Positions 7,762 through 28,948 of a DNA stretch of 64,000 nt are shown here, piece by piece. Source of the DNA: Methylobacterium frigidaeris (GTDB lineage: Bacteria > Pseudomonadota > Alphaproteobacteria > Rhizobiales > Beijerinckiaceae); NCBI GenBank assembly GCA_036946295.1, contig JAQIJK010000002.1, forward strand, positions 122,350 to 186,349, in the 5' to 3' direction. A program made the translations under genes and the position numbers. The notes under the pieces are model-generated. The model saw only the letters and a list, made by a program, of their open reading frames with translations. It had not been told where the DNA came from and searched no databases. Position 1 is the first letter of the stretch. Every line of letters starts with the position of its first letter.

Positions 7762-10389
<2,628 letters not shown>

Positions 10390-10392
<3 letters not shown>

Positions 10393-11366: not shown

Positions 11367-11421
11367 CTCGGTGTGCCCGGCGCATCCCAATCCCCGCGAT
11401 CGTAGAGGAGCCGACGAAGCC

Positions 11422-12879
11422 TTGACCGATCGCCACGAGCAGACCCGCATCGGCGCGGAACTCACCCGGGTTGCACCGAGCTCCGATCCGTTCGCCGCCG
11501 CCGTGCGGGCGACGCGGATGCCGATGCTGATCACCGACCCCAATCAGCCGGACAACCCCATCGTCTTCGTCAACACGGCGTTCTCCAGGCTGACCGGTTA
11601 CGCACACGGCGAAATCCTGGGGCGCAACTGCCGGTTCCTGCAGGGTCCGGAGACGAACAGGCAGGACGTCGCCCGCATCCGCGACGCGGTCGAACGGCGC
11701 ATGCCGGTCGAGATCGAACTGCTCAATCACAAGAAGAACGGCGAGGTGTTCTGGAATCGCCTGCTCATCTCACCCGTCTTCGATGACGATGGGCATCTCA
11801 CCTACTTCTTCGCATCGCAGTTCGACGTGACCCTGGAGAGGGACCGGCTCGTCCGCCTGCAGCAGGACCGGGACGCGCTGGAAGCCGAGGTGGTACGCCG
11901 CACCGACGACCTGACCCGGGCCGAGGAGCGGTTGCGCTTCATGCTCAAGGCCGGCCGCTTCGGCACGTGGTCGCTCGACCTGGCCGACCGGCGGCTGGTC
12001 GCCTCCGACCTGTGCAAGGAGAACTTCGGCCGCCCGGCCAGGGAGCCGTTCTCCTACGCCGACCTGCTTTCCGCCATCGATCCGGCCGACGTGGCCTGGG
12101 TCAAGGATGCCGTCCGGCGATCGATCGAGGAGCATACCGAGTACGGGGTCGAATGCCGCGTCAGGACTCCGAAGGGCGAGACCCGCTGGGTCGAGATGCG
12201 CGGGCAGACCTACTACCGGGCCGATGGCAGCCCCCTGAGCATGGCGGGCGTGACCATCGACGTCACCGAGCGCAAGCGCGGCGAGGAGCACCGGAGCCTG
12301 CTGGCGGACGAACTGCACCACCGGGTCAAGAACTCGATGGCGACCATGCAGTCCATCGCCCACCAGACCCTGCGCAATGCCGCCTCGCTGGACGAGGCGC
12401 AGACCACGCTCGACGCGCGCCTGCGCTCGCTGTCGGCGGCGCACGACATCCTGACGCGGGAGAGCTGGGAGGGTGCGACGTTGGCGGAGATCGTGGAGGA
12501 GGCCCTGCGGCCGTTCCGCATGAGCGACGGTCGGCGGTTCAGGACCGGCGGGCCGGACGTCCGTCTGTCGCCGCGGCTGGCTCTGGCCTTCGTGATGGCG
12601 CTGCACGAGCTGGCGACCAACGCGGTGAAGTACGGTGCGCTGTCGAACGACCGCGGCCGGGTGATCCTCGACTGGGACATCGTGGACGGGATGAAGCCCG
12701 ACCGTCTCTGGCTGCGCTGGGAGGAGATCGGCGGGCCGCCGGTCACCCCGCCGACCCGCAAGGGGTTCGGATCGCGAATGATCGAGCGGGTGCTGGCCGC
12801 CGAGATCGGCGGCGCTGCCGAGGTCGACTATCGCCCGCGGGGTGCCGTGTTCACCCTGGAGGCGCCGCTGCCCGAGTGA
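11422..12879 (+). CDS. Blue-light LOV-PAS-HWE histidine kinase
   Basis: GRNCRFLQG with photoactive Cys; second PAS; ELHHRVKN H-box, ELATNAVKYG, WEE and GFG; RBS GAGGAG before TTG 11422. Confidence 0.92.
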   Translation: MTDRHEQTRIGAELTRVAPSSDPFAAAVRATRMPMLITDPNQPDNPIVFVNTAFSRLTGYAHGEILGRNCRFLQGPETNRQDVARIRDAVERRMPVEIELLNHKKNGEVFWNRLLISPVFDDDGHLTYFFASQFDVTLERDRLVRLQQDRDALEAEVVRRTDDLTRAEERLRFMLKAGRFGTWSLDLADRRLVASDLCKENFGRPAREPFSYADLLSAIDPADVAWVKDAVRRSIEEHTEYGVECRVRTPKGETRWVEMRGQTYYRADGSPLSMAGVTIDVTERKRGEEHRSLLADELHHRVKNSMATMQSIAHQTLRNAASLDEAQTTLDARLRSLSAAHDILTRESWEGATLAEIVEEALRPFRMSDGRRFRTGGPDVRLSPRLALAFVMALHELATNAVKYGALSNDRGRVILDWDIVDGMKPDRLWLRWEEIGGPPVTPPTRKGFGSRMIERVLAAEIGGAAEVDYRPRGAVFTLEAPLPE

Positions 12880-14540: not shown

Positions 14541-14783
14541 GGCGTCTCTCTCCCCTCGGCTCACGGTGCCGCCTCCCGGCCTCGCGGAACGAGACGATGG
14601 CCCCCGCCCAGCCAACACCGAAAGGCCGCCCAGGGCAGATGGGAGGCCCGGAACGGCAGCATTGCCACTGTATCGCGTCAGGTGCGAGCAGGATCGCACC
14701 GGGTCGACATCTTGATGAAGCTTGCCTCAGACGATGCTGGCTGAAGACAAACCGGCCGGTGGCGAGATCGGAATGGTCGGATG

Positions 14784-14812
14784 ATGATGTCGCCAAGGCG
14801 GGCGGCCGTCAA
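14784..14812 (-). promoter_or_regulatory. Putative sigma70 promoter for amidase
   Basis: TTGACG-N17-CATCAT on the minus strand, about 240 nt upstream of the amidase start. Confidence 0.45.
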
Positions 14813-15104
14813 TCGGGGTCCGACGGCTTTTTGACCGGCCTCTCGTCGCCGCATCGGCGCGGAGACGGCGGGACCGGCGGAGGCGCCCCGCGGACGGCGT
14901 GCTCCTCGGGTTGAGCCGCCCGCGCCGAAACCGCGGACCGGTTCGCCCGCGCGGCGCGCGAGGCGGCGGGCAGGATCGCGGTGCGGCTCACCCCGCGGCC
15001 GGCATGACAAGCTGGGCAATAATCGACGCAATCGGTGCGCAACAGCGCACCCATAGAGGTCCGGCTCACGAACGGCCGACAACGGCCGCGGAGGGGGACT
15101 GATC

Positions 15105-15200
15105 ATGCTGCCTTTCTTCAGGATCGTCATCGCAGGCGTCATTCTCGTCGCGTGGAGCCACATCGCTCCCGTCCTGACGGCGCTCGGCGCGATGCCATAG
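15105..15200 (+). CDS. Small hydrophobic membrane peptide (31 aa)
   Basis: MLPFFRIVIAGVILVAWSHIAPVLTALGAMP*, RBS GGAGGGGGA upstream; below ORF-track cutoff. Confidence 0.5.
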   Translation: MLPFFRIVIAGVILVAWSHIAPVLTALGAMP

Positions 15201-15587
15201 GGACGGACGGGGCAGGGCGCCGGCGGATGCCGGACAGCGATGGAGGCGAGGGCGCCGGCCGGCTCTCGCGCGGATCGCCCCCGGCGAGGGTCACGGCTGC
15301 GATCAGGGCCTGATCCCGGAATCAGGCCCGCTACGAGTCCCGCACGATCCCGGCGAGAAGATCCCGACGACGGCCCGCGGTCGCCCCTCGGCGCCAACCC
15401 TCGGCATCCCTGGGCCTTCACCGCCGCGTCGCCGATGGGTTCGTCGAATCCGGCGACGGGCCGGCTCGTCCGCCTGCCCTCCGAGCCCGGTCCCGACGGG
15501 CAATCCATGGCACGTCGCACGATCCGGACGGGTGGGCGTTATGCGAGGGGATCCGTCCCCCTCCGGTCGGGACGAAAGGAACTGACG

Positions 15588-15833
15588 ATGGCGAAGCTCT
15601 TCATCGCGAAGGTCGGCACATCCCGCCCGCTCGTGACCGTTCGCGCCTCGGGCGAAGGCGAGGCCCGGCTCTTTCTGGAGGCGGCCTACCCCGACGAGAC
15701 GATCGAGGCCGTGGCCGAGCCGAGCGACTGGGCGAGCGACGCCGATACGGGCGACGCGGCGGGCGACATCCGCGAGCATCCCGGCGTGACGTGGCAGGCG
15801 CCGTCGAGCCTCGCCGAGCGGCCCGGCTCGTGA
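15588..15833 (+). CDS. Hypothetical small acidic protein (81 aa)
   Basis: AAGGA RBS before ATG; MAKLFIAKVGTSRPLVTVRASGEGEARLFLEAAYPD; strong GC3 codon bias. Confidence 0.7.
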   Translation: MAKLFIAKVGTSRPLVTVRASGEGEARLFLEAAYPDETIEAVAEPSDWASDADTGDAAGDIREHPGVTWQAPSSLAERPGS

Positions 15834-16022
15834 TGTCGGCCGGCTGAGCCGGCCTCGATCCCCGTCCTCGCGACCCGCCTCGGCGGCCCGTCCGCAGCGC
15901 CGCCCGATTTCGCGCGGACGGGTGCCGCGGCCCCGCCGAACGGATCGCCCGGATACCGGTCCGGTCGGGCCGTGTCCGCTCGCCGCCAGCGCGGCGAGGG
16001 GCACGGCGGTCCTCCTGCCGGC

Positions 16023-17471
16023 CTACGGGATGACCGGCGGAGCGTAGGTGAAGGTGGTCATCAGGTAGGAGGCCAGGATCATCACGATCGGGAAGTGGAT
16101 GAAGAACTGCATCGACGTGTAGCCGATCAGGTCCTTCGACTTGAGGCCGAGCACGCCGAGAAGCGGCAGCATCCAGAACGGATTGATGAAGTTCGGCAGC
16201 GTCTCGGCGATGTTGTAGACCATCACGGTCCAGCCGAGATGGGCGCCGATCTCGTTGGCGGCCTTCATGACGTAGGGCGCCTCGATCACCCACTTGCCGC
16301 CGGCCGAGGGGATGAAGAAGCCGAGGGTCGCCGAGTACAGGCCGACGATCAGCGAGAAGGCGCCGGAATCGTGCGCGAGGCTCACGAACCAATGCGCGAT
16401 CGTGTCCGACAGGGTGGCGCCGGCGCCGTTCTTCACCCGCGTCAGCATGTAGGCGATCCCGCCGTAGAACGGGAACTGGAGCAGGACGCCGGCGACGCTC
16501 GGCATCGCGTGCGAGAAGCTCGTCAGGAAGCCCCGCGGCCGCCAGTGCAGCAGCGCCCCGACCAGCAGGAAGACGAAGTTGTAGGTGTTGAGCCCCGACA
16601 TCGTGATGAGCGGGTTGCCCGCCTTGAAGGTCTCGAACAGCCACCCGGCCGCCAGCACCACCGTGAGGATCGTCAGGATCGGGCTGAATTCGAGGTAGTC
16701 GCCGGGTCGCGCCGGGCGCTGGTCCTCCGCCTTGGCGTCCACGAGGCTCACGCCGAGGTCGGCCGCGGTGACGGCGTTGGCGTCGGACGGGGTGGTGTAG
16801 TGGCAGATGGCGGCCGAGAGCAGCGTGCCGACGCCGATGACGAGCAGGTTCTGCCAGGTCAGGATCGTCTCGTAGAAGCTGATCACGCCGGTGATCGGCA
16901 TGAGCGAGGCGGGGATGCTCGCCGGGGTGGCCTGGAGCTGGGCGGCGGACGAGCTGATGCCGAGCGTGAACCCGAAGCCGAGGCCGAGATAGCCGGCCGC
17001 GCCGGCCGCCCGGTAGTCGAGCCGGAGGTCGCCGCGGCGAGCGATCTCGCGGACCAGCAGCCCCGAGAAGATCAGGCTCACGCCCCAGTTCACGAGCGAG
17101 AGCAGGATGCTGACCACGCCGACGAAGACGACGGCGCCCCGCCCCGTCCGGGGGAAGGCCGCCGCGCGGCGCATGAGCCGCGCCACCGGGGGTGAGACGG
17201 CGACGACGTAGCCGCCGACCGCCACGAGCGCCATCTGCATCGTGAACGGGATCAGGCTCCAGAAGCCGTCGCCGAAGGCCCGGCTGACGCCCACGGCCTC
17301 GCCCCCGTGCAGCAGGACGCCGCCGGCGACCAGGATCGTGGCGAGAAGCACGAAGATGTAGGCGTCGGGAAACCACCGCTCGGCGAAGGCCACCATCACC
17401 TGGGAGAGGCGCACCAGGACGTTCTCCCGCGGTGGGGCCTGCGTGGAAGCGGGGGCAAGGGTCCGGCTCAT
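16023..17471 (-). CDS. atoE: AtoE/TIGR00366 short-chain fatty acid transporter
   Basis: AERWFPDAYIF, GFWSLIPFTMQM, FFIPSAGGKWVIEAPY, NFINPFWMLPLLG. Confidence 0.85.
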   Translation of the reverse strand: MSRTLAPASTQAPPRENVLVRLSQVMVAFAERWFPDAYIFVLLATILVAGGVLLHGGEAVGVSRAFGDGFWSLIPFTMQMALVAVGGYVVAVSPPVARLMRRAAAFPRTGRGAVVFVGVVSILLSLVNWGVSLIFSGLLVREIARRGDLRLDYRAAGAAGYLGLGFGFTLGISSSAAQLQATPASIPASLMPITGVISFYETILTWQNLLVIGVGTLLSAAICHYTTPSDANAVTAADLGVSLVDAKAEDQRPARPGDYLEFSPILTILTVVLAAGWLFETFKAGNPLITMSGLNTYNFVFLLVGALLHWRPRGFLTSFSHAMPSVAGVLLQFPFYGGIAYMLTRVKNGAGATLSDTIAHWFVSLAHDSGAFSLIVGLYSATLGFFIPSAGGKWVIEAPYVMKAANEIGAHLGWTVMVYNIAETLPNFINPFWMLPLLGVLGLKSKDLIGYTSMQFFIHFPIVMILASYLMTTFTYAPPVIP

Positions 17472-17484
17472 GGAAAGCTCCTTC

Positions 17485-17653
17485 TCGTACGGTTCTCGAT
17501 GGGTCGCTTCGGGCGATTCCTGCGGGATCGCGGCGATTGCGGAGCAATCGCGACGCGAGGCGGAAACCGGCTTCGCTCATGCGTGCGGAGCAAAGCTCCG
17601 CCGCGCGGGCTGGTGATGCGGAATCCGGAAGCAATCTTCCGGATTCCGCATCA
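17485..17653. repeat. Modular palindromic repeat, modules B+A, ending at Mo-enzyme stop codon
   Basis: A hairpin TGATGCGGAATCCGGAAG-CAAT-CTTCCGGATTCCGCATCA (17614-17653, perfect 18-bp stem, two GANTC sites); terminal TCA is the minus-strand stop. Confidence 0.88.
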
Positions 17654-20600
17654 GGCATCGAGCACGCAGTCGGCGAGCGGGACGGCGCGGCAGGTCAGGC
17701 AGTGGTCGGAGGGGCCGTCGTAGGCGGCGAGGTGCGCGACCGTCCCGGTGGCGAGCCTCACCTGGCAGCTCTCGCACTGGCCGGTGCGGCAGCCGCTCGG
17801 CAGGCGCAGGCCGGCCTTCTCGGCGGCATCGAGCAGGGTTCCGGCGCCGGGCGACCAGAGGAAGCTCGCCCGGCTGCGGGCGAGCGCGATGGTCCGCGGG
17901 GCGAGGTCCGGCGGAACGTCGGCCCGGGCGCCGAACAGTTCGCTGGCGATGTCGAAGCGCGGCACCCCCCAGCCGCGCAGGAGCGAGGTCGCGTCCGCCA
18001 CGAACGCCTCCGGGCCGCAGATGTAGGCGAGGGGGTGCTGGCCCGGAAACGGCGACGGCAGATCGAGGAGGGCGGACCGTCCGGTCCGGTCGTAGTCCCG
18101 GCCGGGGTGGTCCCCCGGCGCCGGCCGCGTGAAGACATGCGTCGCCGCGAATCCCGGCAGGCGGGGGGCGAGCGCCCGCATTCGGGCGCCGAAGGGATGC
18201 GCGGTCCCGTCGCGGCAGACGTAGACGAGCCGGATCCCGGGCGGGCAGTGCGGAATGCCGGCATCGGCGAGCGCCTCGAGGTAGCTCACGAAGGGCGTGA
18301 TGCCGATGCCCGCGGCGAGCAGGATGACGGGACGGTTCCCGCCCAGGGGCGGCGTGAACGTGCCGTGCGGGGCCTCCAGCGACAGGGTCGCGCCGACCCC
18401 GAGGCCGTGGAGGTGGGACGACATCCGTCCCGGCGTCGCCGTTCCGGGGCCGACCAGCTTCACGGCGATGTCGTAGCGCGCGGGGTGCCGGTGCGGGCCG
18501 GTGAGCGAGTAGGCCCGCGCCAAACCTCCCTCCGTGGCCACGCGGACGTGCTGCCCGGGCTGGAACCCGGCGAGGGGGCCGCCATCCGCCGGCGCGAGGG
18601 AGAGAGCCAGAACATCCGCGGCTTCGTGTCGGACCGCCGCGATCGTGAAGGCGCGCCCTCCGCTCCACCAGCCGCGGCTGCGCGCCTCGTCCCGGGTGAT
18701 GTCGCAGGCGACCGCGCGAAGCGGCACCGACCCGCTCACCGGGTCCCGGCTCTCGTCCGAGAGCGCGTCGTTGACGTTCAGGGTGTCCGGACCGGCCTCC
18801 GGGGTGCGCGGCCGCCCGAGAGGCGGACAATCCTCCCACCAGCCGAACTCCGCGATGACCGTGTCGTCCGCGAGCGTCGGATCGAGGCGGGCGCGCAGCC
18901 GGGCCGTCCCGTGCGTCGTGCGCAGGACGACCCAGTCGCCGGCCCGGATGCCGCGGGCGGCGGCGGCGGCGGGGCTGATCTCGACCGAGGGATCCGGTGC
19001 CTTGCGGCGGAGCGAGGCGACGTGCCGGTGCGAGCTGTGAACGTACCAGCCGGACTTCGCGGTCGAAAGCCAGAGCGGCAACGTCGGATCGCCGCCTCCG
19101 GCGGGCGCGACGAAGGAGGGCAGGGGCGGGTGGCCGTGCTCCAGCAGGAGTTCGGAATAGAGCTCGGCCCGGCCGGTCGGCGTGGCGAAGCCCGCGGGGC
19201 TTCCGTCCGCGCCCGGCGCGGCGTACTTGCGTTCCGGACAGAGTTGCGGGATGCGGACGCCGTCCGGACGCGCGCGCAGCTCCGCCACGGTCAGTCCGAG
19301 CGGCGCGAGCTGGTGGTTCCAGCCGGCCTCGACCGAACCACCGAAGAACGCCTCGGCGTGGCCGAGCCGGCAGGCGAGGTCGAACACGATCTCGTAATCC
19401 GCCCGCGTCTCGGCGAGGGACGGGAGCATCGCCTGGCGCAGTTGCACCAGCTCGACGGCCTCCTGGGTGATCTCGAAGCCGACCTTCAGCGCCTCGCGCT
19501 CCCAGGGCATGCTGGCCGGGAGCACGATGTCGGCGTTCTCCGCCGTCGGATTCATGAACATGTCGACGTGGACGTGGAAGCCGAGCGCCCGCAACGCCTC
19601 CCGGTTGCGGGCCGACCCTCCTTGCGACACCGCGAAGTTGGTGCCGAAGCTCATCAGGGCTTCGACGCGGTAGGGCTCCGCCTCCAGCACCGCGCGCGCG
19701 AAGTCGCGGGCCGTGATCCAGCCCCTGGCAGGCGGGCCGAGCGGCAGGGCGGCGAGGCCGAGGGCCTTCGCCCGCTGGTGCGGCGCCAGCAAGCCGTAGT
19801 CGTTCACGCTCCGGGACGGGGGCGCCACGGTCCAGAGATTGCCGCCGGCCCGGTCGTTCGCTCCCGTGAGGGCGTAGAGGGCTGAGATCGCCCGCTCGGT
19901 CTGGGTCGCGTTGGTGTGCTGCCCGACCCCGGTCCAGGAATGGTAGGCGAGACGTGGCGAGTTCTCGAACAGCGCGTAGAACCGGGCGAGATCATCGGGG
20001 CCGAGGCCGGTGATCCGCGCGACGTGGTCGGGTGTGTATGCGGCGGCGTCCCGTCGCAGCAGCGTGAACGCGGTCGCGCAGCGCAGGCGGCGTCCGTCGC
20101 CCGCCGGCAGCACGGCCTCGCCCTCCAGCAGGATCGCGGGATCGTCGGGATCGGAGTTCCCCGGGCGCGGCCCGTCGGGGCCGAGCACCATGAAGCCGGT
20201 GTCCGAGCTGCCGGGCCGGAGGTCGCAGGCCCGAACGAAGCGTCCGGTGTCGCGATCGACCAGGAACGGCGCGTTCGTCCAGCGCCGCACGAAGGGGGTG
20301 TCGTACCGCTGCGTCGCGATCAGGTGCCGGATGGCTCCCATGGCGAGGGCCGCGTCGGTGCCGGGACGAACGCGCAGCCACAGATCGGCATCCTCGCCCG
20401 ACCCGCCGCGCTTGGGATCGACGACGGCCACCGTCGCGCCGCGGCGGCGCGCCGCCGCCACGCGGGTCGCCTGGGCGAGCCAGGTCCGGGCCGGATTGTG
20501 CCCCCACAGCACGATCACGTCCGCGCGGTCGTAGTCGGCCGCGCCGATGCCGCGTCCGAACGTGAGAGCCTGGGCGTAGTCCTTGTGCCAGCCGCAGACC

Positions 20601-21019
20601 TCGACGGCGTAGATCAGGTTCGGGCTGCCGAAGACCCGGATGAAGCGCTCCACCCACTCGAAGCTGTCCACCATCGGCGTGCCGCTCGGGGTGGTGACGG
20701 CGAAGGCGACGGCCTCGGCCCCACGCTGCGCCCGGATCCCGCCGAGGCGGGACGCGATCTCGGCCAGCGCCTCGTCCCAGGAGATCGGCACGAAGCCGGG
20801 ATCCGGGTGGTGGCGCGATCGCGTGCGCCGGAGCGGAACGGTCAGCCGCCGCGGGCTGCCCACCAGCTCGGGAGCAGCGCGCCCCTTGGCGCAGAGCGCG
20901 GCGCCGGTGGGATGGTCCGGGTTCGGACGCACGCTCACGAGCCGGCCGTCCTCGACCTCGTTGAGGGAGCCGCACCGCGAGCGGCAGAGGGTGCAGTAGC
21001 CCGCCTTGACCTCGATCAC
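17651..21019 (-). CDS. DMSO-reductase-family Mo/W-bisPGD enzyme fused to FNR-type FAD/NAD(P)H reductase and [2Fe-2S] ferredoxin
   Basis: CTLCRSRC..C [4Fe-4S]; WGHNPA, VRPGTDAALA, ADIVLPA; C-terminal RAYSLTG, LLAAGIGITP, YICGP, CRTGQCESC..C. Confidence 0.88.
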   Translation of the reverse strand: MIEVKAGYCTLCRSRCGSLNEVEDGRLVSVRPNPDHPTGAALCAKGRAAPELVGSPRRLTVPLRRTRSRHHPDPGFVPISWDEALAEIASRLGGIRAQRGAEAVAFAVTTPSGTPMVDSFEWVERFIRVFGSPNLIYAVEVCGWHKDYAQALTFGRGIGAADYDRADVIVLWGHNPARTWLAQATRVAAARRRGATVAVVDPKRGGSGEDADLWLRVRPGTDAALAMGAIRHLIATQRYDTPFVRRWTNAPFLVDRDTGRFVRACDLRPGSSDTGFMVLGPDGPRPGNSDPDDPAILLEGEAVLPAGDGRRLRCATAFTLLRRDAAAYTPDHVARITGLGPDDLARFYALFENSPRLAYHSWTGVGQHTNATQTERAISALYALTGANDRAGGNLWTVAPPSRSVNDYGLLAPHQRAKALGLAALPLGPPARGWITARDFARAVLEAEPYRVEALMSFGTNFAVSQGGSARNREALRALGFHVHVDMFMNPTAENADIVLPASMPWEREALKVGFEITQEAVELVQLRQAMLPSLAETRADYEIVFDLACRLGHAEAFFGGSVEAGWNHQLAPLGLTVAELRARPDGVRIPQLCPERKYAAPGADGSPAGFATPTGRAELYSELLLEHGHPPLPSFVAPAGGGDPTLPLWLSTAKSGWYVHSSHRHVASLRRKAPDPSVEISPAAAAARGIRAGDWVVLRTTHGTARLRARLDPTLADDTVIAEFGWWEDCPPLGRPRTPEAGPDTLNVNDALSDESRDPVSGSVPLRAVACDITRDEARSRGWWSGGRAFTIAAVRHEAADVLALSLAPADGGPLAGFQPGQHVRVATEGGLARAYSLTGPHRHPARYDIAVKLVGPGTATPGRMSSHLHGLGVGATLSLEAPHGTFTPPLGGNRPVILLAAGIGITPFVSYLEALADAGIPHCPPGIRLVYVCRDGTAHPFGARMRALAPRLPGFAATHVFTRPAPGDHPGRDYDRTGRSALLDLPSPFPGQHPLAYICGPEAFVADATSLLRGWGVPRFDIASELFGARADVPPDLAPRTIALARSRASFLWSPGAGTLLDAAEKAGLRLPSGCRTGQCESCQVRLATGTVAHLAAYDGPSDHCLTCRAVPLADCVLDA

Positions 21020-21097
21020 TCCGGCCTCCCCCGATAGGTAGTGCGTGACGCGCTATATTGAGACGCGTCGCGCGCCACCGCAAGTCGGTATCGAACT

Positions 21098-21192
21098 CGT
21101 ATCACCGGCCCGCGCGGCGCGGAGCAAAGCTCTGCGCGCACCTGAGCGAAGCCGGTTTCCGCGTTGCGAAGCGATCAATCGGAAATCGTATA
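21098..21192. repeat. Modular palindromic repeat (decayed A end + inverted B) in divergent promoter region
   Basis: CGTATCACCGGCCCGCGCGGCGCGGAGCAAAGCTCTGCGC..TGAGCGAAGCCGGTTTCCGCGTTGCGAAGCGATCAATCGGAAATCGTATA. Confidence 0.8.
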
Positions 21193-21213
21193 ACAGGCAG
21201 CGGAGGTCGAAGA

Positions 21214-21909
21214 ATGGTCAGCACTCAGAACGCCGCCCCGGTGCCGGTGGCCACCGAAGCCAATCTGCGCGAGCAGGTGCAGCAGCGCCTTCGCCTCGGC
21301 ATCGTGTCGGGGGAAATCGGGCCGGGAACCATCCTGTCCGTCCCGGCCCAGGCGCGGATTCTCGGCGTTTCGACCACGCCCGTGCGGGAGGCGCTCCTGC
21401 AGCTCACCGCGGACGGCCTGCTTCAGCCGCTGCGCAACCGCGGCTTCTGCGTGGTCGAGCCGACGCTCGAGGAACTGCGCAACCTGTTCGAGGTCCGGTT
21501 GCAGCTCGAAACCTCGGCCTTCGTGAAGCTGGTGCGAGGCGGGCTGGACGACGTCTCGGAACTCACGACGCAGGCGGATGCCATCGCCCGGGCCGTGCGC
21601 GCGAACGACGTCCAGCTCTACCTTGCCGCCGACCGCGCCTTCCACCGGGAGTTGCTGTCCCGGGCCGGGAACGCCGTCCTGGCCGGGATCGTGATGCGGC
21701 TGCGGGACACGATGAGGTTGTATGGCATCGGCTCGGAAGCCGGGTTGGCCCGCCAGGAGGAATCGGTTCCCGAACACTACCGCATCATCGAGATGCTGCA
21801 GCGGGGTGGCGAGCCCGAAGCCGCGTCGGCGCTCATGCACAAGCACATCATGGATTGGGAGCCGATCTTCTCGGAATTTCTCAGGATCGGCGAGCCCTGT
21901 CGCGATTGA
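21214..21909 (+). CDS. GntR family regulator (HTH + FCD)
   Basis: LGVSTTPVREALLQL..RNRGF; DRAFHRELL; GGAGG RBS. Confidence 0.9.
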   Translation: MVSTQNAAPVPVATEANLREQVQQRLRLGIVSGEIGPGTILSVPAQARILGVSTTPVREALLQLTADGLLQPLRNRGFCVVEPTLEELRNLFEVRLQLETSAFVKLVRGGLDDVSELTTQADAIARAVRANDVQLYLAADRAFHRELLSRAGNAVLAGIVMRLRDTMRLYGIGSEAGLARQEESVPEHYRIIEMLQRGGEPEAASALMHKHIMDWEPIFSEFLRIGEPCRD

Positions 21910-22388: not shown

Positions 22389-23618
22389 CTACTTGTCCGG
22401 CGAGATCGGCATCTGGACCGAGCCGTCGAGGTACTGGGTCGGTCCGGCGGCGCTCGGGTTGATGTCGAAGTCGAAGATGCCGGTCGGCAGCCACAGGGTC
22501 GCGCAGGCGTTCGGCACGTCGACGACGCCCGAGATGTGGCCCTGCACCGGCGCGGTGCCGAGGATCGAGTAGGCCTGGGCGCCGGAATAGCCGAACTTCT
22601 TCAGGTACTCGATCGCGTTGAGGCACGCCTGCCGGTACGCCACCGTCACGTCGAGGTAGTGCTGGCCGCCGCTCTCGTCGACCGAGATGCCCTCGAAGAT
22701 GAGGTGGTCGTCGAAGCGCGGGACGATCGGCGATGGCTTGAAGATCGGGTTCCTGATCCCGTACTTCGCCATGCCGTCCTTGATGACCTCGACCTTGAGG
22801 TGGACCCAGCCCGCCATCTCGATCGCGCCGCAGAAGGTGATCTCGCCGTCGCCCTGGCTGAAATGCAGGTCGCCCATCGAGAGGCCGGCGCCCGGGACGT
22901 AGACCGGGAAGTAGATCTTCGAGCCGCGCGACAGGTCCTTGATGTCGCAATTGCCGCCGTGCTCGCGCGGCGGGACGGTGCGGGCGCCCTCCGCCGCCGC
23001 CTTGTCCCTCGCGTCACCCGACAGGCGGCCCATATGGGCGGTCGGGCCGAAGGGCGGGTTGGCCAGCCCCGGCACCCGGGTCGGGTTGGTGGCGATCAGC
23101 GCGGTCTCGCGCTCGTTCCAGGTCGCGAGCAGCTTCGGGTCGGGCAGGCATCCGATCAGGCCGGGATGGATCAGGCCGGGGAAGCGCACGCCCGGGACGT
23201 GGCGCGACTTGGTGAACATCCCCTCGAAGTCCCAGATCGACTTCTGGGCGAGCGGGAAGTGGTCGGTGAGGAAGCCGCCGCCGTTCTGCTTCGAGAAGAA
23301 GCCGTTGAAGCCCCATTGCGACTCCGGCTTGGCGCCGATGTCGAGGAGGTCGACGACCAGCAGGTCGCCCGGCTCGGCGCCCTCGACGCCGATCGGGCCG
23401 GAGAGGAAGTGCACGATCGACAGGTCGATGTCGCGCACGTCGTCGGCCGAGTCGTCGTTCTTGATGAAACCGCCGGTCCAGTCGTAGGTCTCGACGATGA
23501 AGTCCTGCCCGGGCTTCACGTAGGCGACCATCGGGATGTCCGGGTGCCAGCGGTTGTGCACCATGTCGTTCTCGTAGGCCGACTGCGTCAGGTCGACCTT
23601 GATCAACGTCTCGGGCAT
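22389..23618 (-). CDS. fmdA: Formamidase
   Basis: HNRWHPDIP, VHFLSGPI, PPREHGGNCDIKDL, GDLHFSQGDGEITFCGAIEM, VVDVPNACAT. Confidence 0.93.
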   Translation of the reverse strand: MPETLIKVDLTQSAYENDMVHNRWHPDIPMVAYVKPGQDFIVETYDWTGGFIKNDDSADDVRDIDLSIVHFLSGPIGVEGAEPGDLLVVDLLDIGAKPESQWGFNGFFSKQNGGGFLTDHFPLAQKSIWDFEGMFTKSRHVPGVRFPGLIHPGLIGCLPDPKLLATWNERETALIATNPTRVPGLANPPFGPTAHMGRLSGDARDKAAAEGARTVPPREHGGNCDIKDLSRGSKIYFPVYVPGAGLSMGDLHFSQGDGEITFCGAIEMAGWVHLKVEVIKDGMAKYGIRNPIFKPSPIVPRFDDHLIFEGISVDESGGQHYLDVTVAYRQACLNAIEYLKKFGYSGAQAYSILGTAPVQGHISGVVDVPNACATLWLPTGIFDFDINPSAAGPTQYLDGSVQMPISPDK

Positions 23619-23710
23619 GCGTTTCCCTTTCCCCTGGAGCGGGTGTTTCCCCGGCCTGCCGGCCGGGATCGTGGTCGCGAGGGCGCGGGGCCGGCTCGCG
23701 GTGTTCGGGA

Positions 23711-23842
23711 TCATACGGTTTCCGGAAGATTACTTCCGGAAACCGTATGATCAGCCCGCGCGGCGCCTGAGCGAAACCGGTTTCCGCATCGCGAAAGCGA
23801 CCGCTCGCGGTCGCCTGAAGCGATCAACCGGAAATCGTATCA
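23711..23842. repeat. Modular palindromic repeat, A + inverted B, ending at urtE stop codon
   Basis: Perfect 18-bp stem TCATACGGTTTCCGGAAG-ATTA-CTTCCGGAAACCGTATGA (23711-23750); B ends CGTATCA, where TCA is the urtE stop. Confidence 0.9.
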
Positions 23843-24583
23843 GACCGACAGGTAGCGGGCGACCGTCGCCTCATCGATCTCGGCGCGGGCCTCCTCGTGA
23901 ACGATCGAGCCATTCTCGATGACGAGAACCCGATCGGCAATATCGAGGGCGAAGCTCAGCACCTGCTCGGAGACGACGATCGAGAGCCCGCGCTCGTCAC
24001 GGATCGTCTTCAGCGTCCGGCCCATCTCGCGGATGATCGAGGGCTGGATGCCCTCGGTCGGCTCGTCGAGGAGCAGCACCTTCGGCCGGCTGGCGAGCGC
24101 GCGGGCGATGGCGAGCTGCTGCTGCTGGCCGCCCGACAGGTTGCCGCCGCGCCGGCCCTTCATCTCCAGGAGCACCGGGAACATCGCGTAGAGGTCCCCC
24201 GGCACCTTGGATTCGCCGGTGACGGTCAGCCCGGTCTCGATGTTCTCCTGCACCGTCATGGTGGAGAAGATCATCCGCCCCTGCGGCACGTAGGCGAGGC
24301 CCCGGGCGACGCGCTGGTGGCTCCTGAGCGCGGTCACGTCGCGGCCGTCGACCCGGATCGTGCCGGCGCGGGCCGGCAGGATGCCCATCAGGGTCCGCAT
24401 CAGGGTCGACTTGCCCATGCCGTTGCGGCCCATCACGGCGACGATCTCGCCCGGCGCGACGGTGAGGTCGATGCCGTGCAGCACCTCGCTCTGGCCGTAG
24501 GCGGCGTGGAGGTCGGTGACCGACAGGACCGGGGCGGCGCCGGGCGCTGCGACGGCAGAGGGAACGGGAGCGGTCTGGAGCAT
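23840..24583 (-). CDS. urtE: Urea/short-chain amide ABC transporter ATPase UrtE
   Basis: GRNGMGKS, YVPQGRMIF, LSGGQQQQLA, DEPTEGIQPSII. Confidence 0.9.
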   Translation of the reverse strand: MLQTAPVPSAVAAPGAAPVLSVTDLHAAYGQSEVLHGIDLTVAPGEIVAVMGRNGMGKSTLMRTLMGILPARAGTIRVDGRDVTALRSHQRVARGLAYVPQGRMIFSTMTVQENIETGLTVTGESKVPGDLYAMFPVLLEMKGRRGGNLSGGQQQQLAIARALASRPKVLLLDEPTEGIQPSIIREMGRTLKTIRDERGLSIVVSEQVLSFALDIADRVLVIENGSIVHEEARAEIDEATVARYLSV

Positions 24584-24597
24584 GGCGGTTCCTCCCC

Positions 24598-25371
<774 letters not shown>

Positions 25372-25382
25372 CGAAACAATCC

Positions 25383-26525
25383 TCACTCGGCGGGGGCGCC
25401 CTGGGGCAGCGCGGCGGGGGCGGGGCCGGCGGCCTTGGGGCGGCGGGTCAGCAGCGGCTCGACGTGCTGGCGCCAGATGCCGGCGAGGCCGTTGGGGAAG
25501 GCGAGCACCACCGCGATGAACAGCGCGCCGAGGCCGAACAGCCACAGTTCGGGGAAGGACTCGGAGAAGGTGGTCTTGGCCCAGTTGACCAGCAGCGTGC
25601 CGTAGATCGCGCCGAACAGCGACAGCCGTCCGCCGACCGCGGCGTAGATCACCATCTCGATCGACGGCACGATGCCGACGAAGGACGGCGACATGAAGCC
25701 GACTTGGAGGGTGAACATCGCCCCGCCGATCGCCGCGAACGCGGCCGCGAGGCAGAAGGCGAAGATCTTGAAGCTCGCGACGCCGTAGCCGGAGAAGCGG
25801 ACCCGGTCCTCCTTGTCGCGCATCGCCACCAGGATGCGGCCGAGCTTCGAGCGCTTGACGTATTGCGCCACCAGCACGCAGGCGACGAGCAGCCCACCGT
25901 TGACGAAGTAGAGGATGGTCTTCGCCGAGTCGGTGCGGATGTCCCAGCCGCTCAGCGTGCGCAGGTCGGTGATGCCGTTGATGCCGCCGGTATAGCCCTG
26001 CTGGCCGACGATCAGGATGGTCAGGATCGCGGCGATCGCCTGGGTGATGATCGCGAAGTAGGTGCCGCCGACCCGGCGCTTGAACATCGCCGCGCCGACG
26101 ATGAAGGCGAACAGGGTCGGCACCAGCACCACCGCGATCAGGGTCAGCGGCAGGCTCTTGAACGGCGTCCAGAACCACGGCAGGGCGGTGATCTGGTTCC
26201 AGTCCATGAAGTCCGGGATGCCGGGGGTCGACTGGATCTTGGTGTTGGCGACCGACGACGCCTCGAGCTTGAGGTACATCGCCATGCAGTAGCCGCCGAG
26301 ACCGAAGAACACGCCCTGGCCGAGCGACAGGATCCCGCAGTAGCCCCAGCAGATGACGAGGCCCAGAGCCACGAAGGCGTAGGTGAGGTACTTGCCGACC
26401 AGGTTGAGCCGGAACCCGTCGAGGGCGAGGGGCAGCACCGCGAAGAGCAGGGCGCAGAGGAGGGCGAGGGAGGCCCACTCCACCGGCTTCATGAACGGGT
26501 TGTCGTTGAGGGTCGGGAGTTTCAT
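25383..26525 (-). CDS. urtC: Urea/amide ABC permease UrtC
   Basis: WGYCGILSLGQGVFFGLGGY, PGIPDFMDWN, RDKEDRVRFSGY. Confidence 0.92.
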   Translation of the reverse strand: MKLPTLNDNPFMKPVEWASLALLCALLFAVLPLALDGFRLNLVGKYLTYAFVALGLVICWGYCGILSLGQGVFFGLGGYCMAMYLKLEASSVANTKIQSTPGIPDFMDWNQITALPWFWTPFKSLPLTLIAVVLVPTLFAFIVGAAMFKRRVGGTYFAIITQAIAAILTILIVGQQGYTGGINGITDLRTLSGWDIRTDSAKTILYFVNGGLLVACVLVAQYVKRSKLGRILVAMRDKEDRVRFSGYGVASFKIFAFCLAAAFAAIGGAMFTLQVGFMSPSFVGIVPSIEMVIYAAVGGRLSLFGAIYGTLLVNWAKTTFSESFPELWLFGLGALFIAVVLAFPNGLAGIWRQHVEPLLTRRPKAAGPAPAALPQGAPAE

Positions 26526-26537
26526 GCGCGTCGCTCC

Positions 26538-27464
26538 TCAGCGCCGGACCTTGAGGGTGAAGAGGCCCTGCGGCCGCAGCATCAGGATTCCCACGACGGC
26601 GAGCAGGGTGATGACCTTCGCGGTCGAGCCGGAGAGGAAGAATTCGAGGGTCGACTGGGTCTGCGAGATCGAGAAGGCCGACGCGATGGTGCCGAGCAGG
26701 CTGGCGGCGCCGCCGAAGACCACGATCAGGAAGGTGTCGACGATGTAGAGCTGGCCCGAGGTCGGCCCGGTCGAGCCGATCATCGTGAAGGCCGAGCCGG
26801 CGATTCCGGCGATGCCGCAGCCGAGGCCGAAGGTGAGGCGGTCGACCTTCCCGGTGTCGATGCCGACCGCGCCAGCCATCACCCGGTTCTGCATCACCGC
26901 CCGGACCTGCTTGCCGTAGCGCGACGCGAACAGCAGGGCGGCGACCACGAGGGTGATGAGCACGGTGATGCCCATCACGAACAGGCCGTTGATCTGGATC
27001 TCGATCGTGTCGGTCGCCTGGATCGAGCCCATCATCCAGGACGGCAGCTCGACGCCGACCTCGCGGGCGCCGAAGATCGAGCGGTAGGCCTGCTGGAGGA
27101 TCAGCGACAGGCCCCAGGTGGCGAGCAGCGTGTCGAGGGGCCGCTTGTAGAGGTGGCGGATCAGCCCCCACTCGACCAGCATCCCCAGGGCGCCTGCGAC
27201 CACGAAGGCCAGCGCCATCGCGACGAAGAAGTAGACCGGAAACAGGCCCGGCAGGTGGGCCTGGAAGAACGTCGAGCACAGGTAGGTCATGTAGGCGCCG
27301 AGGATCATGAATTCCCCGTGCGCCATGTTGATGACGCCCATCTGGCCGAAGATGATCGCGAGGCCGAGCGCCATCAGCACGTAGACCGAGAACAGGATCA
27401 GGCCGGCGAAGCCCTGCATGGCGAAGATCGCGCCGAGGTCGCCGAGCGAGTAGTCACCGAACAT
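26538..27464 (-). CDS. urtB: Urea/amide ABC permease UrtB
   Basis: GLAIIFGQMGVINMAHGEF, LYKRPLDTLLATWG, YIVDTFLIVVFGG. Confidence 0.92.
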   Translation of the reverse strand: MFGDYSLGDLGAIFAMQGFAGLILFSVYVLMALGLAIIFGQMGVINMAHGEFMILGAYMTYLCSTFFQAHLPGLFPVYFFVAMALAFVVAGALGMLVEWGLIRHLYKRPLDTLLATWGLSLILQQAYRSIFGAREVGVELPSWMMGSIQATDTIEIQINGLFVMGITVLITLVVAALLFASRYGKQVRAVMQNRVMAGAVGIDTGKVDRLTFGLGCGIAGIAGSAFTMIGSTGPTSGQLYIVDTFLIVVFGGAASLLGTIASAFSISQTQSTLEFFLSGSTAKVITLLAVVGILMLRPQGLFTLKVRR

Positions 27465-27530
27465 GGGCGGGAGCTCCGGCAGGAGGTTCGATCAATTGGC
27501 AATGCGCCAGCGATCACGGAACTGGCGTGA

Positions 27531-27664
27531 ACCCTCCCCCCTCTGCGCGAGGCTGTCCGGGGAAAAGAAATGGCGCATCTCCCCTCTCCTACTCGGGAGA
27601 GGGGATCCCGCGCTTGATTTCAAAAGGAATTTTCCCTGGACAGCCGTGCGCGGAGGGGGAGGGT
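27531..27664. repeat. Nested inverted-repeat element (CCCTCCCC..GGGGAGGG arms enclosing a CCCCTCTCC..GGGAGAGGGG hairpin)
   Basis: Imperfect ~32-bp terminal IRs 27531-27563 and 27633-27664; inner hairpin 27581-27604 matches arms of element 40678-40856. Confidence 0.8.
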
Positions 27665-27676
27665 CAGGACTGCGCC

Positions 27677-28948
27677 CTACTGGTAGCCCTTCGGGAACGG
27701 GTTCGGCTCGATCAGGTCGGCGCTCTCGTAGACCACCTCGAACTGGCCGTTCGGCAGCGCCTTGCCGACCCGCGTCTTCGACCACAGGTGGTGGTTGGGG
27801 TGGATCCGCACGTAGCCTTCCGGCGCGCCCTTGAACTCGATCCCGGCCGACGCCGCCGCGACCTTGTCGACGTCGAACGAGCCGGCCTTCTCGACGGTGA
27901 GCTTCCACAGGTACGGACCGAGATAGGCCGCCTGGGTCACGTCGCCGATCACCGTCTTCTCGCCCCACATCTTCTTGAAGGCGGCGACGAACTTCTCGTT
28001 GTTCGGGTTCTTGAGCGACTGGAAGTACTTCATGCAGGCATAGGCGCCGGCGATGTTCTCGCCGCCGATGCCGTCGATCTCGTCCTCGGTCACCGAGATC
28101 GTCATCAGCACCTGCTTCGACAGGTCGATGCCGGCCGCCTTGAGCTGCTTGTAGAACGCCACGTTCGAGCCGCCGACCACGTCGGTGAAGATCACGTTCG
28201 GCTTCGTCAGCTTGATCTTGTTGATGACCGAGTTGAACTGGGTGTGGCCGAGCGGGAAGTACTCCTCGCCGACGACCTTGCCCTTCAGCACGTTCTCGAC
28301 GTGCTTGCGGGCGATCTTGTTCGAGGTGCGCGGCCAGATGTAGTCCGAACCGATGAAGAAGAAGGTCTTGGCGTCCTTCTCCTTGGCGACCCAGTCGAGG
28401 CTGGCGAGGATCTGCTGTGTCGCCTCCTGGCCGGTATAGATGACGTTCTTCGACTCTTCCAGGCCCTCGTAGAAGGTCGGGTAGTACAGCATGCCGTTGT
28501 ACTGCTCGAACACCGGCAGCACCGCCTTGCGCGAGGCCGAGGTCCAGCAGCCCATCACGGCCGCGCACTTGTCGTTGACGAGCAGCTTCTTGGCCTTCTC
28601 GGCGAAGGTCGGCCAGTCCGAGGCGCCGTCCTCCTGGATGATCTTGATCTTGCGGCCGAGCACGCCGCCGGCCTGGTTGATCTCCTCGATCGCGAGCTTC
28701 TCCGCCTGCTGCGCCCCGGTCTCGGAGATCGCCATCGTGCCGGTGACGGAGTGCAGGATGCCGACCGTCACCTCGGTGTCGGTCACGGCGAGGCCGGTGG
28801 TGTTGACCGCCGAGGTCGGCGGGGCGGCGGCGTGGGCGAAGCGCGGCAGCATCGCGGCGGCCGGCACCGCGGCGAGCCCCATCAGCAGCCTGCGCCGCAG
28901 CGCGGAATCCAGGCCGCGATCGTTCCCCTCTGGGTTGCCGTCTGCCAT
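27677..28948 (-). CDS. urtA: Urea/amide ABC substrate-binding protein UrtA (Tat signal)
   Basis: RRRLLMGLAA; GILHSVTGTMAISE, EDGASDWPTFAEK, CWTSASRK, FYEGLE, SDYIWP. Confidence 0.93.
   Translation of the reverse strand: MADGNPEGNDRGLDSALRRRLLMGLAAVPAAAMLPRFAHAAAPPTSAVNTTGLAVTDTEVTVGILHSVTGTMAISETGAQQAEKLAIEEINQAGGVLGRKIKIIQEDGASDWPTFAEKAKKLLVNDKCAAVMGCWTSASRKAVLPVFEQYNGMLYYPTFYEGLEESKNVIYTGQEATQQILASLDWVAKEKDAKTFFFIGSDYIWPRTSNKIARKHVENVLKGKVVGEEYFPLGHTQFNSVINKIKLTKPNVIFTDVVGGSNVAFYKQLKAAGIDLSKQVLMTISVTEDEIDGIGGENIAGAYACMKYFQSLKNPNNEKFVAAFKKMWGEKTVIGDVTQAAYLGPYLWKLTVEKAGSFDVDKVAAASAGIEFKGAPEGYVRIHPNHHLWSKTRVGKALPNGQFEVVYESADLIEPNPFPKGYQ

Follow-up and report, generated by a model that had tools for sequence, protein, structure and literature searches.

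A single-chain molybdoenzyme with its own reductase

We analysed a stretch of 64,000 nucleotides of Methylobacterium frigidaeris DNA (contig JAQIJK010000002.1, positions 122,350 to 186,349; hereafter the window) and focused on a gene encoding a fusion protein in which a molybdenum- or tungsten-dependent catalytic half of the bis-pyranopterin guanine dinucleotide type (Mo/W-bisPGD) is joined to a half resembling ferredoxin-NADP+ reductases (FNR) that ends in a [2Fe-2S] domain (Table 1). This gene, the co-oriented AtoE-like transporter gene and the divergent GntR gene lie exactly where an earlier reading made from the letters alone (the sequence-only reading) had put them. That reading's claim of one 1122-aa chain carrying [4Fe-4S], bis-PGD, FAD/NAD(P)H and [2Fe-2S] domains is confirmed by the frame and by six Pfam domains, all of which exceed their gathering scores. 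The frame contains no internal stop over 1122 codons, its GC content at third codon positions is 0.92 with the same third-position bias as in real genes nearby, and a GGAGG box stands 5 nt ahead of the GTG start.

The catalytic half carries the domains of the dimethyl sulfoxide (DMSO) reductase (MopB) superfamily, with Molybdopterin and Molydop_binding both above their gathering scores (PF00384, 118.6 bits against a cut-off of 24; PF01568, 79.2 bits against 26.8) and PF04879 at 35.8 bits. Other hallmarks of MopB proteins are also present, namely the N-terminal CxxCxxxC...C motif, whose fourth Cys is followed by the conserved Lys, and a predicted metal ligand supplied by the protein (Cys142). 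In the C-terminal half the domains follow in the order FAD_binding_6, NAD_binding_1 and Fer2, with the RxYS, GxGxxP and Cx4Cx2C...C motifs in place, and NCBIfam and phmmer searches liken this half to flavohaemoglobin reductase modules, phthalate dioxygenase reductase (PDR), BenC and PaaE. The AlphaFold2 (AF2) model of the fusion is one confident body (pLDDT 90.1, pTM 0.88), and no solved chain spans beyond the Mo half of that model (TMq ≤ 0.57). Since the first cluster Cys is residue 9, there is no room for a twin-arginine (Tat) leader, as the sequence-only reading had noticed, and the fusion protein is therefore predicted to be cytoplasmic.

Table 1. Features of the fusion gene and its immediate neighbours (window coordinates)
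Feature	Position	Strand	Basis
Mo/W-bisPGD-FNR-[2Fe-2S] fusion gene (P0001)	17651..21019	(-)	open frame, GTG start, 1122 aa, six Pfam domains
[4Fe-4S] (FS0) domain, aa 5-53: Cys9, Cys12, Cys16, Cys43, Lys45	20861..21007	(-)	PF04879
Arg13 codon, position of the acetylene hydratase catalytic Asp13	20981..20983	(-)	alignment to 2e7z
Molybdopterin (bis-PGD) catalytic body, aa 58-549	19373..20848	(-)	PF00384, E 4e-34
Cys142 codon, predicted Mo/W ligand, in E-x-C-[G/N]-W-H-K-D	20594..20596	(-)	alignment to acetylene hydratase
Molydop_binding dinucleotide-binding cap, aa 649-770	18710..19075	(-)	PF01568, E 2.9e-22
FAD-binding domain (FNR-like), aa 799-888, R835-x-Y837-S838	18356..18625	(-)	PF00970 FAD_binding_6
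NAD(P)H-binding domain, aa 900-1010, G904-x-G906-x-T908-P909, C1001-G1002	17990..18322	(-)	PF00175 NAD_binding_1
Plant-type [2Fe-2S] Fer2, aa 1051-1114, Cys1077/1082/1085/1110	17678..17869	(-)	PF00111
AtoE/SCFA_trans transporter, 482 aa, presumed substrate importer	16023..17471	(-)	PF02667, E 1.9e-82
Divergent intergenic control region, GGAGG at 21025-21029 (-)	21020..21213		read directly
GntR/FCD regulator, longest open reading frame from 21058, probable start 21214	21214..21909	(+)	PF00392 + PF07729

The AtoE-type carrier matches PF02667 with 278 bits over residues 19-469 and reaches 275 bits on TIGR00366, below the cut-off of 576, which marks it as a divergent family member. No terminator-like site was found between the fusion gene and atoE. 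As for the regulator, the sequence-only reading was right about its place and divergent orientation (open reading frame (ORF) 21058-21909), but its start is probably the ATG at 21214, giving 231 aa, because homology begins near 21238 and called orthologues are mostly ~220-255 aa long. A conserved GntR operator was not found in the divergent region; the window contains two TCGTAT[A/C]AC boxes, and nothing is common to the orthologous regions.

Conservation and spread of the fusion

The fusion is a real, widespread and uncharacterised single-chain Mo (or W) enzyme with its own NAD(P)H-to-iron-sulfur electron supply. In an alignment of 39 fused sequences of 34-88% identity, every predicted cofactor ligand (C9, C12, C16, C43, K45, C142, C1077, C1082, C1085 and C1110) is invariant, and so are the RxYS (R835) and GxGxTP (G904) motifs. 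Position 13 is Arg in 32 sequences and Lys in 5, Ser14 is found in all 39 and Arg15 in 37, while E140, W144, H145, K146 and D147 around Cys142 are kept in 36-38. The family signature at the metal site can therefore be written as [R/K]13-S14-R15 together with E140-x-C142-[G/N]-W144-H145-K146-D147.

The top of a search through 5.8 billion proteins consists of full-length relatives with the same Pfam set from Methylobacterium, Bradyrhizobium and Enterovirga, and the Mo half used as query against a library of 50%-identity representatives retrieved fused proteins (~1100-1150 aa) down to ~38% identity. Pattern scans of one genome per species found the window-type motifs CTLCRSRCG and E[VI]CGWHKD at 440 loci, and a scan with the actinobacterial-type alignment yielded at least 564 confirmed relatives. 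Hundreds of species from the Hyphomicrobiales, Burkholderiales and Actinobacteria carry the fusion: the hosts include Methylobacterium, Bosea, Bradyrhizobium, Xanthobacter, Azorhizobium and Brucella cytisi, Bordetella, Paraburkholderia, Cupriavidus and Comamonas as well as Streptomyces, Amycolatopsis, Nocardia, Rhodococcus, Saccharopolyspora and Mycolicibacterium. On the tree the window's protein falls within a well-supported proteobacterial clade of 83 rows; nine rows on a branch of ~4.7 substitutions per site, probably frames extracted wrongly, were ignored.

This spread disposes of an assembly artefact or a stop codon lost in this assembly only, which the sequence-only reading had named as the finding that would undo its proposal: over 170 of the loci retrieved encode it at full length, as do 12 of the 121 Methylobacterium species genomes. 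An apparent split into a Mo subunit gene and a separate FNR-Fer2 gene at loci L150-L167 also proved wrong, the ORFs being fused and encoding 1124 and 1142 aa. Within Methylobacterium the distribution is patchy. With genes for RepA (PF10134) and a ParA-type protein, the window's replicon of 350,440 bp resembles a megaplasmid or chromid, and together with the patchy distribution this makes the fusion look like an accessory, mobile trait.

Loci L088-L149 (Thalassobaculum, Reyranella, Nisaea, Minwuia and Hyphomicrobiaceae) hold a large family of unfused cousins of ~795 aa, 44-49% identical and carrying the motifs CALCKSRC and TEICNWHKD, with no FNR-Fer2, AtoE or ornithine cyclodeaminase (OCD) gene nearby; they are a further bis-PGD group that awaits characterisation, with no evident electron partner. 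In Streptomyces, a paralogous fusion clade (L202-L232) is 59-62% identical to the Streptomyces operon type and has no conserved neighbours; some of its loci follow glycoside-hydrolase genes (GH6, 3-keto-disaccharide hydrolase), and its substrate may differ. Distant fused relatives on metagenome contigs (L005/L006 and L007, with 42% and 38% identity) are accompanied by a GarD/UxaA-type dehydratase, an MR_MLE enolase-superfamily protein and a sugar ABC transporter, or by FAA_hydrolase and Pyr_redox_2 proteins, a hint that the wider fusion family also acts on other substrates.

Conserved gene neighbourhoods

The sequence-only reading had proposed conservation of the atoE and gntR neighbours as a check of its assignment, and both are conserved. 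Of the 80 loci analysed in the window's clade (54-88% identity), 62 have AtoE after the fusion and 66 have a GntR/FCD homologue, mostly divergent and adjacent; AtoE is more conserved than the enzyme, and the remaining neighbourhood varies. A GntR/FCD homologue was likewise found at 41 of 80 actinobacterial-type loci. We then took a census of genes within 7 kb of the fusion at 172 fused loci (a few of them fetched twice), which recorded AtoE at 96, an OCD-type reductase at 47, glutamate dehydrogenase (GDH) at 13, an ABC importer at 12 and Δ1-pyrroline-5-carboxylate (P5C) dehydrogenase at 8. None of these neighbours was present at 46 loci, mostly from one Streptomyces paralogue clade.

In Actinobacteria and in a second group of Burkholderiaceae the operon order is regulator, fusion, OCD/μ-crystallin gene and AtoE, and at one such locus (L167) the OCD-type gene is separated from the fusion and AtoE by gaps of 34 and 4 nt. 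The OCD-type gene passes the NCBIfam equivalog for Δ1-pyrroline-2-carboxylate (Pyr2C)/Δ1-piperideine-2-carboxylate reductase (431 and 398 bits against 322), and its PDB matches include Pyr2C reductase. A true ornithine cyclodeaminase, which would have suited a role for N5-hydroxyornithine, was rejected, as the corresponding model gives 109 bits against 350 and the Pyr2C reductase model passes. The Pyr2C reductase gene also stands after AtoE in several Hyphomicrobiales (Methylobacterium sp. J-077, B. elkanii and others), and the OCD linkage is present in three deep clades of the tree. An orthologue 68% identical to the operonic Pyr2C reductase is encoded on the window's own replicon, 85 kb from the module and paired with a DAO-type flavoenzyme (L249:9649-12391) beside the RepA/ParA genes (L249:8244-14193).

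Across three phyla the operon has recruited enzymes of the proline/glutamate node, the Pyr2C reductase among them, and this recruitment is a new observation. An aldehyde dehydrogenase (ALDH) gene ~20 nt after AtoE is found at all AtoE-carrying Burkholderiales loci of the window's clade except L059, and in one Bradyrhizobium metagenome-assembled genome; it passes the equivalog for L-glutamate γ-semialdehyde (P5C) dehydrogenase with 790-815 bits against 614. GDH follows the fusion in one Amycolatopsis group and AtoE in others, and is found in some Streptomyces too, while a split P5C reductase follows AtoE at a single locus (L003). Loci in which an ABC importer with a PotD/PhnS-like binding protein replaces AtoE nest inside the window's clade on the tree. 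A UbiD gene that stands 2.4 kb downstream of the fusion in Xanthobacter scores 428 bits with HudA/PA0254 and 373 with Fdc1, its best match being the UbiD-like 6da6 with 443.

The Xanthobacter loci (L064, L071, L076 and L086) form a variant cluster in which the GntR gene is followed by a pirin/YhhW-like cupin, an ABC importer (PotD/PhnS-like substrate-binding protein, permease and TOBE ATPase) and the fusion. After the fusion come a 390-aa protein, the HudA-like UbiD and a 384-aa protein; both of these proteins are without a Pfam match.

Surroundings of the module in the window

Downstream of atoE, beyond a 1.3-kb gap (14700-16022) in which no convincing gene and no OCD or ALDH relic was found, lies an amidase-signature enzyme (PF01425; 13140-14699, (-)). 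On the other side, a formamidase/acetamidase (PF03069, E 6e-182) and an ABC importer adjoin the GntR gene (22389-28948, (-)); the importer comprises a Peripla_BP_5 binding protein of the urea/short-chain-amide type, two BPD_transp_2 permeases and at least one ATPase. A functional link of the module to the formamidase, the amide ABC transporter or the amidase was rejected, as they are not conserved beside the fusion elsewhere. Further away, an HWE-type histidine kinase with PAS domains (11371-12879, (+)) and an aconitase-family protein (7762-10392, (+)) have no evident link to the module. Public RNA runs contain next to nothing of the locus.

A candidate function and its alternatives

From the architecture, conservation and gene linkages observed here we infer a direction of electron flow, a product class and a substrate. 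The accessory enzymes handle Δ1-pyrroline carboxylates or proline/glutamate, which suggests a C5 nitrogen-containing acid with proline or glutamate as its final product; the module thus probably feeds such an acid into the proline/glutamate node. The fusion alone is universal and therefore most likely performs the first, committing step, and since any cell processes pyrroline carboxylates, proline and glutamate, a one-enzyme module would suffice in most genomes. Because the reductase half is of an NAD(P)H-oxidising type, we favour reduction to a pyrroline carboxylate, and our tentative assignment is that the fusion protein may be an NAD(P)H-driven reductase of an imported C5 nitrogen-ring carboxylate. 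The cytoplasmic NAD(P)H-coupled reductase or hydroxylase of a small organic acid proposed in the sequence-only reading fits the conserved architecture and the atoE/gntR neighbours. The substrate class can be narrowed, as the accessory genes indicate a C5 nitrogen-containing acid and not a generic short-chain, unsaturated or alkynoic one.

On this assignment, the GntR/FCD protein would sense a small carboxylate, the AtoE-type carrier would bring it into the cell and the fusion protein would reduce it in the cytoplasm with NAD(P)H, the electrons passing within one polypeptide from NAD(P)H through FAD, [2Fe-2S] and [4Fe-4S] to the Cys142-ligated Mo/W-bisPGD. L-proline or L-glutamate would be the form in which the product, a Δ1-pyrroline carboxylate (Pyr2C or P5C), joins central metabolism. 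Two-electron reduction of pyrrole-2-carboxylate, if that is the substrate, would give Pyr2C by 4,5-addition or P5C by 2,3-addition. Arg13, Arg15 and Lys146 might hold the carboxylate, Trp144 might stack on the ring, and His145 and Glu140 might supply protons. The first reduction, uphill with NAD(P)H by a rough estimate, would be pulled by the co-encoded, strongly exergonic imine reductase, in keeping with the operon.

Pyrrole-2-carboxylate is the best single candidate for the substrate, though as such possible but doubtful; the gene linkages suggest it, and as a small planar monocarboxylate it suits the AtoE-type carrier, the FCD sensor and the Arg/Lys/Trp/His pocket. Pyrrole-2-carboxylate arises spontaneously from Δ1-pyrroline-4-hydroxy-2-carboxylate, an intermediate of the hydroxyproline pathway, and we know of no described reductive route from it to proline. 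It serves as an inhibitor or intermediate analogue for hydroxyproline epimerase and enzymes of the proline racemase family (PMC4113996), and its microbial metabolism has been called poorly understood (PMC12899673). The enzymes acting on it that are cited in PMC12899673 include a flavin monooxygenase of Arthrobacter Py1 and the UbiD-type decarboxylases HudA/PA0254. These would share their substrate with the fusion, but have unrelated folds and chemistry (oxygenation and decarboxylation).

Several points weigh against a pyrrole-reducing fusion. We know of no bis-PGD enzyme that reduces a heteroaromatic ring; dearomatisation by a W-pterin exists in class II benzoyl-CoA reductase, an unrelated enzyme of the AOR type. 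The pyrrole/pyrroline couple lies, by a rough estimate, below NAD(P)H, so that the next enzyme would have to pull. Pyr2C reductase is in the operon at only ~7 of the 80 loci of the window's clade, and here it is 85 kb away; the HudA-like gene is confined to one genus, Xanthobacter; and what follows AtoE is at many loci unrelated (PdxA, a biotin-synthase-like radical-SAM gene, UPF0029). P5C dehydrogenase suits P5C more than Pyr2C, so that no single product isomer is indicated unless proline is an intermediate. The assignment for the family draws on sequence and gene context, and the architecture by itself leaves the direction of electron flow unfixed.

Electrons could accordingly run the other way, from substrate through Mo, [4Fe-4S], [2Fe-2S] and FAD to NAD(P)+, in a water-dependent hydroxylase or dehydrogenase that would be the bis-PGD analogue of xanthine dehydrogenase. 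Pyrrole-2-carboxylate, for example, would be hydroxylated at C5, the OCD-type imine reductase would then yield 5-oxoproline, and 5-oxoprolinase and GDH would finish the route. The set of Mo, Fe-S, FAD and NAD cofactors parallels that of NAD-reducing Mo hydroxylases, GDH and imine reductase as neighbours fit equally, and one Bradyrhizobium lineage has PxpABC-type 5-oxoprolinase genes at a distance of 2-4 kb. Yet this linkage is limited to that lineage, FAD_binding_6/NAD_binding_1/Fer2 modules are known as NAD(P)H oxidisers, and the P5C dehydrogenase that is tightly operonic in Burkholderiales would have no role, and we regard the hydroxylase as rather unlikely. Reduction of 5-oxoproline to P5C was set aside because textbook couples put it, as a rough estimate, at ~+45 kJ/mol with NAD(P)H. 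The superfamily usually catalyses oxygen-atom transfer, and an oxo-transfer reductase of the DMSO reductase type, with NAD(P)H as donor, could act on an N-oxide, S-oxide, N-hydroxy compound or oxyanion that bears or resembles a carboxylate; the proline/glutamate neighbours would then reflect the carbon skeleton of the oxide or be partly coincidental. The Arg/Lys-rich pocket would suit anions, and the variant with an ABC importer has a PotD/PhnS-like binding protein. We nevertheless consider such an enzyme unlikely, given that no N- or S-oxide of a pyrroline or proline carboxylate is known as a common natural metabolite, that no nitrite reductase or sulfur-metabolism gene is a neighbour, and that the NCBIfam scores for oxyanion and S/N-oxide reductases fall far below their cut-offs.

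The kinship with acetylene hydratase, the closest solved relative in sequence and fold, raises the alternative of a non-redox hydratase of an alkynoic or alkyne amino acid, in which the fused reductase would merely keep the metal reduced. Anti-Markovnikov hydration of propargylglycine, for instance, would give glutamate semialdehyde, matching the P5C dehydrogenase neighbour, with P5C dehydrogenase or reductase acting next. Against this, the catalytic Asp13 is replaced by Arg/Lys in 37 of 39 sequences and Ser and Gly/Asn stand in place of Ile14 and Ile142; occasional reactivation would hardly call for a stoichiometric NAD(P)H module that is strictly conserved; alkyne amino acids are rare, yet the module is found in hundreds of species; and Pyr2C reductase would be left without a role. 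Such a hydratase therefore appears improbable. Still further from our expectation is a formate dehydrogenase (or CO2 reductase) in the cytoplasm, linked to NAD(P)+ and handling the formate that the neighbouring formamidase releases. Formate is a short-chain carboxylate, formamidase and amide importer adjoin the module in the window, and the formate dehydrogenase alpha model is the best NCBIfam match by E-value. The score, however, is 210 bits against 666 (TIGR01591), the Cys ligand stands in the context C-[G/N]-W-H instead of the (Se)Cys-His pair of formate dehydrogenases known from FdhH, and the formamidase neighbourhood is conserved at no other locus, which makes this highly improbable.

Returning to the favoured NAD(P)H-driven reductase, electron transfer in bis-PGD molybdoenzymes normally falls to separate subunits, and most of the substrates known for them are inorganic oxyanions, S/N-oxides, formate and a small number of hydrocarbons. 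In the fusion the whole wire from NAD(P)H to Mo lies on one cytoplasmic chain, in hundreds of aerobic soil- and plant-associated species, and the conserved partners indicate C5 nitrogen-containing acid chemistry, which is known for no member of the superfamily. Encoded by one gene and driven by a cheap reductant, the fusion is unusually tractable for enzymology and biocatalysis. With due reserve, it could be the first Mo/W-bisPGD dearomatiser of a heterocycle, an NAD(P)H:pyrrole-2-carboxylate reductase making Δ1-pyrroline-2-carboxylate (or P5C). If so, the fusion and Pyr2C reductase would together give soil- and plant-associated bacteria a new route that leads in two steps from pyrrole-2-carboxylate, which hydroxyproline breakdown yields as a by-product, to L-proline; this would fill a gap in pyrrole-2-carboxylate metabolism and make ring reduction part of what the family can do. 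Should the substrate be a different one, the operon still yields a short, testable list of candidates.

Comparison with known enzymes

We found nothing in the literature on this architecture, on the gene trio or on a Mo enzyme tied to pyrrole-2-carboxylate, and no match to the architecture or the operon among curated families and solved structures. Public databases name the fusion merely 'molybdopterin-dependent oxidoreductase', and the names in the ESM Atlas are generic. The sequence-only reading knew of no characterised enzyme with this architecture, and no paper or solved structure has turned up to the contrary.

The closest solved relative, acetylene hydratase of Pelobacter acetylenicus (2e7z; sequence E 2e-49; fold TM 0.85, root-mean-square deviation 3.6 Å), is likewise cytoplasmic, has no Tat leader and carries an N-terminal [4Fe-4S] cluster. 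The resemblance pointed out in the sequence-only reading, with Arg for the catalytic Asp, is borne out by the HMMER alignment, in which CQSCDINC of acetylene hydratase lies over CTLCRSRC of the fusion (Asp13 to Arg13) and the Cys of its GSPNWTSAMYMC segment (GSPN...C) corresponds to Cys142 in GSPNLIYAVEVC of the fusion. The literature on acetylene hydratase names this Cys of the GSPNWTSAMYMC segment as the W ligand. Ile14, Ile142 and others form the hydrophobic substrate ring of that enzyme. At 23% identity and with a ~70-aa insertion in the alignment after residue 248, the Cys ligand of GSPN...C is retained, whereas the catalytic Asp13 is replaced and the hydrophobic ring is lost at the two mapped positions (Ile14 to Ser, Ile142 to Gly/Asn143). 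Acetylene hydratase is moreover non-redox and lacks the FAD/NAD/[2Fe-2S] module. With Arg13 for Asp13 and Ser14/Gly143 for Ile14/Ile142, the fusion protein is, judged by its residues, not an acetylene hydratase.

The second-best sequence match, PsrA/PhsA (2vpw; E 1e-43, TM 0.81), shares with the fusion a Cys-ligated bis-PGD and an FS0 cluster, but Psr is exported by the Tat system and is supplied with electrons by a 4x[4Fe-4S] subunit and a quinol anchor in the membrane; on the NCBIfam PhsA model the fusion scores 180 bits against 694. It also stays far below every cut-off of the NCBIfam models for nitrate, selenate, arsenate, thiosulfate and S/N-oxide reductases, including those for assimilatory nitrate reductase (NF047855 (NasC), 139 against 1100 bits; NF041323, 58 against 1000).

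We know of just one other kind of single-chain bis-PGD enzyme that is self-sufficient and draws its electrons straight from NAD(P)H, namely NasN. It is described as an assimilatory nitrate reductase of Mycobacterium smegmatis that is monomeric and depends on NADPH (Tan et al. 2020, as cited in PMC7816997). NasN combines a diflavin part (FMN+FAD, CysJ-like) with a NarB-type domain, whereas the fusion combines FNR and [2Fe-2S] domains with a Mo domain like those of acetylene hydratase and Psr. Two further M. smegmatis proteins, MSMEG_6816 and MSMEG_2237 (PMC7816997), have 720 and 760 aa and no extra domains, and are thus not this fusion.

In its last 330 aa the fusion follows phthalate dioxygenase reductase (2pia), which phmmer matches over residues 792-1097 with the same order of flavin, NAD and plant-type [2Fe-2S] domains. 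No described example of a PDR-type module fused to a bis-PGD molybdoenzyme was found. Self-sufficient fusions of the P450-RhF/CYP116B type are built on PDR-type modules. The fusion shares with them the logic of joining a catalytic domain to its own NAD(P)H-to-FeS supply, but the catalytic partner, which in PDR-type systems is a Rieske oxygenase or a P450, is here a bis-PGD molybdoenzyme.

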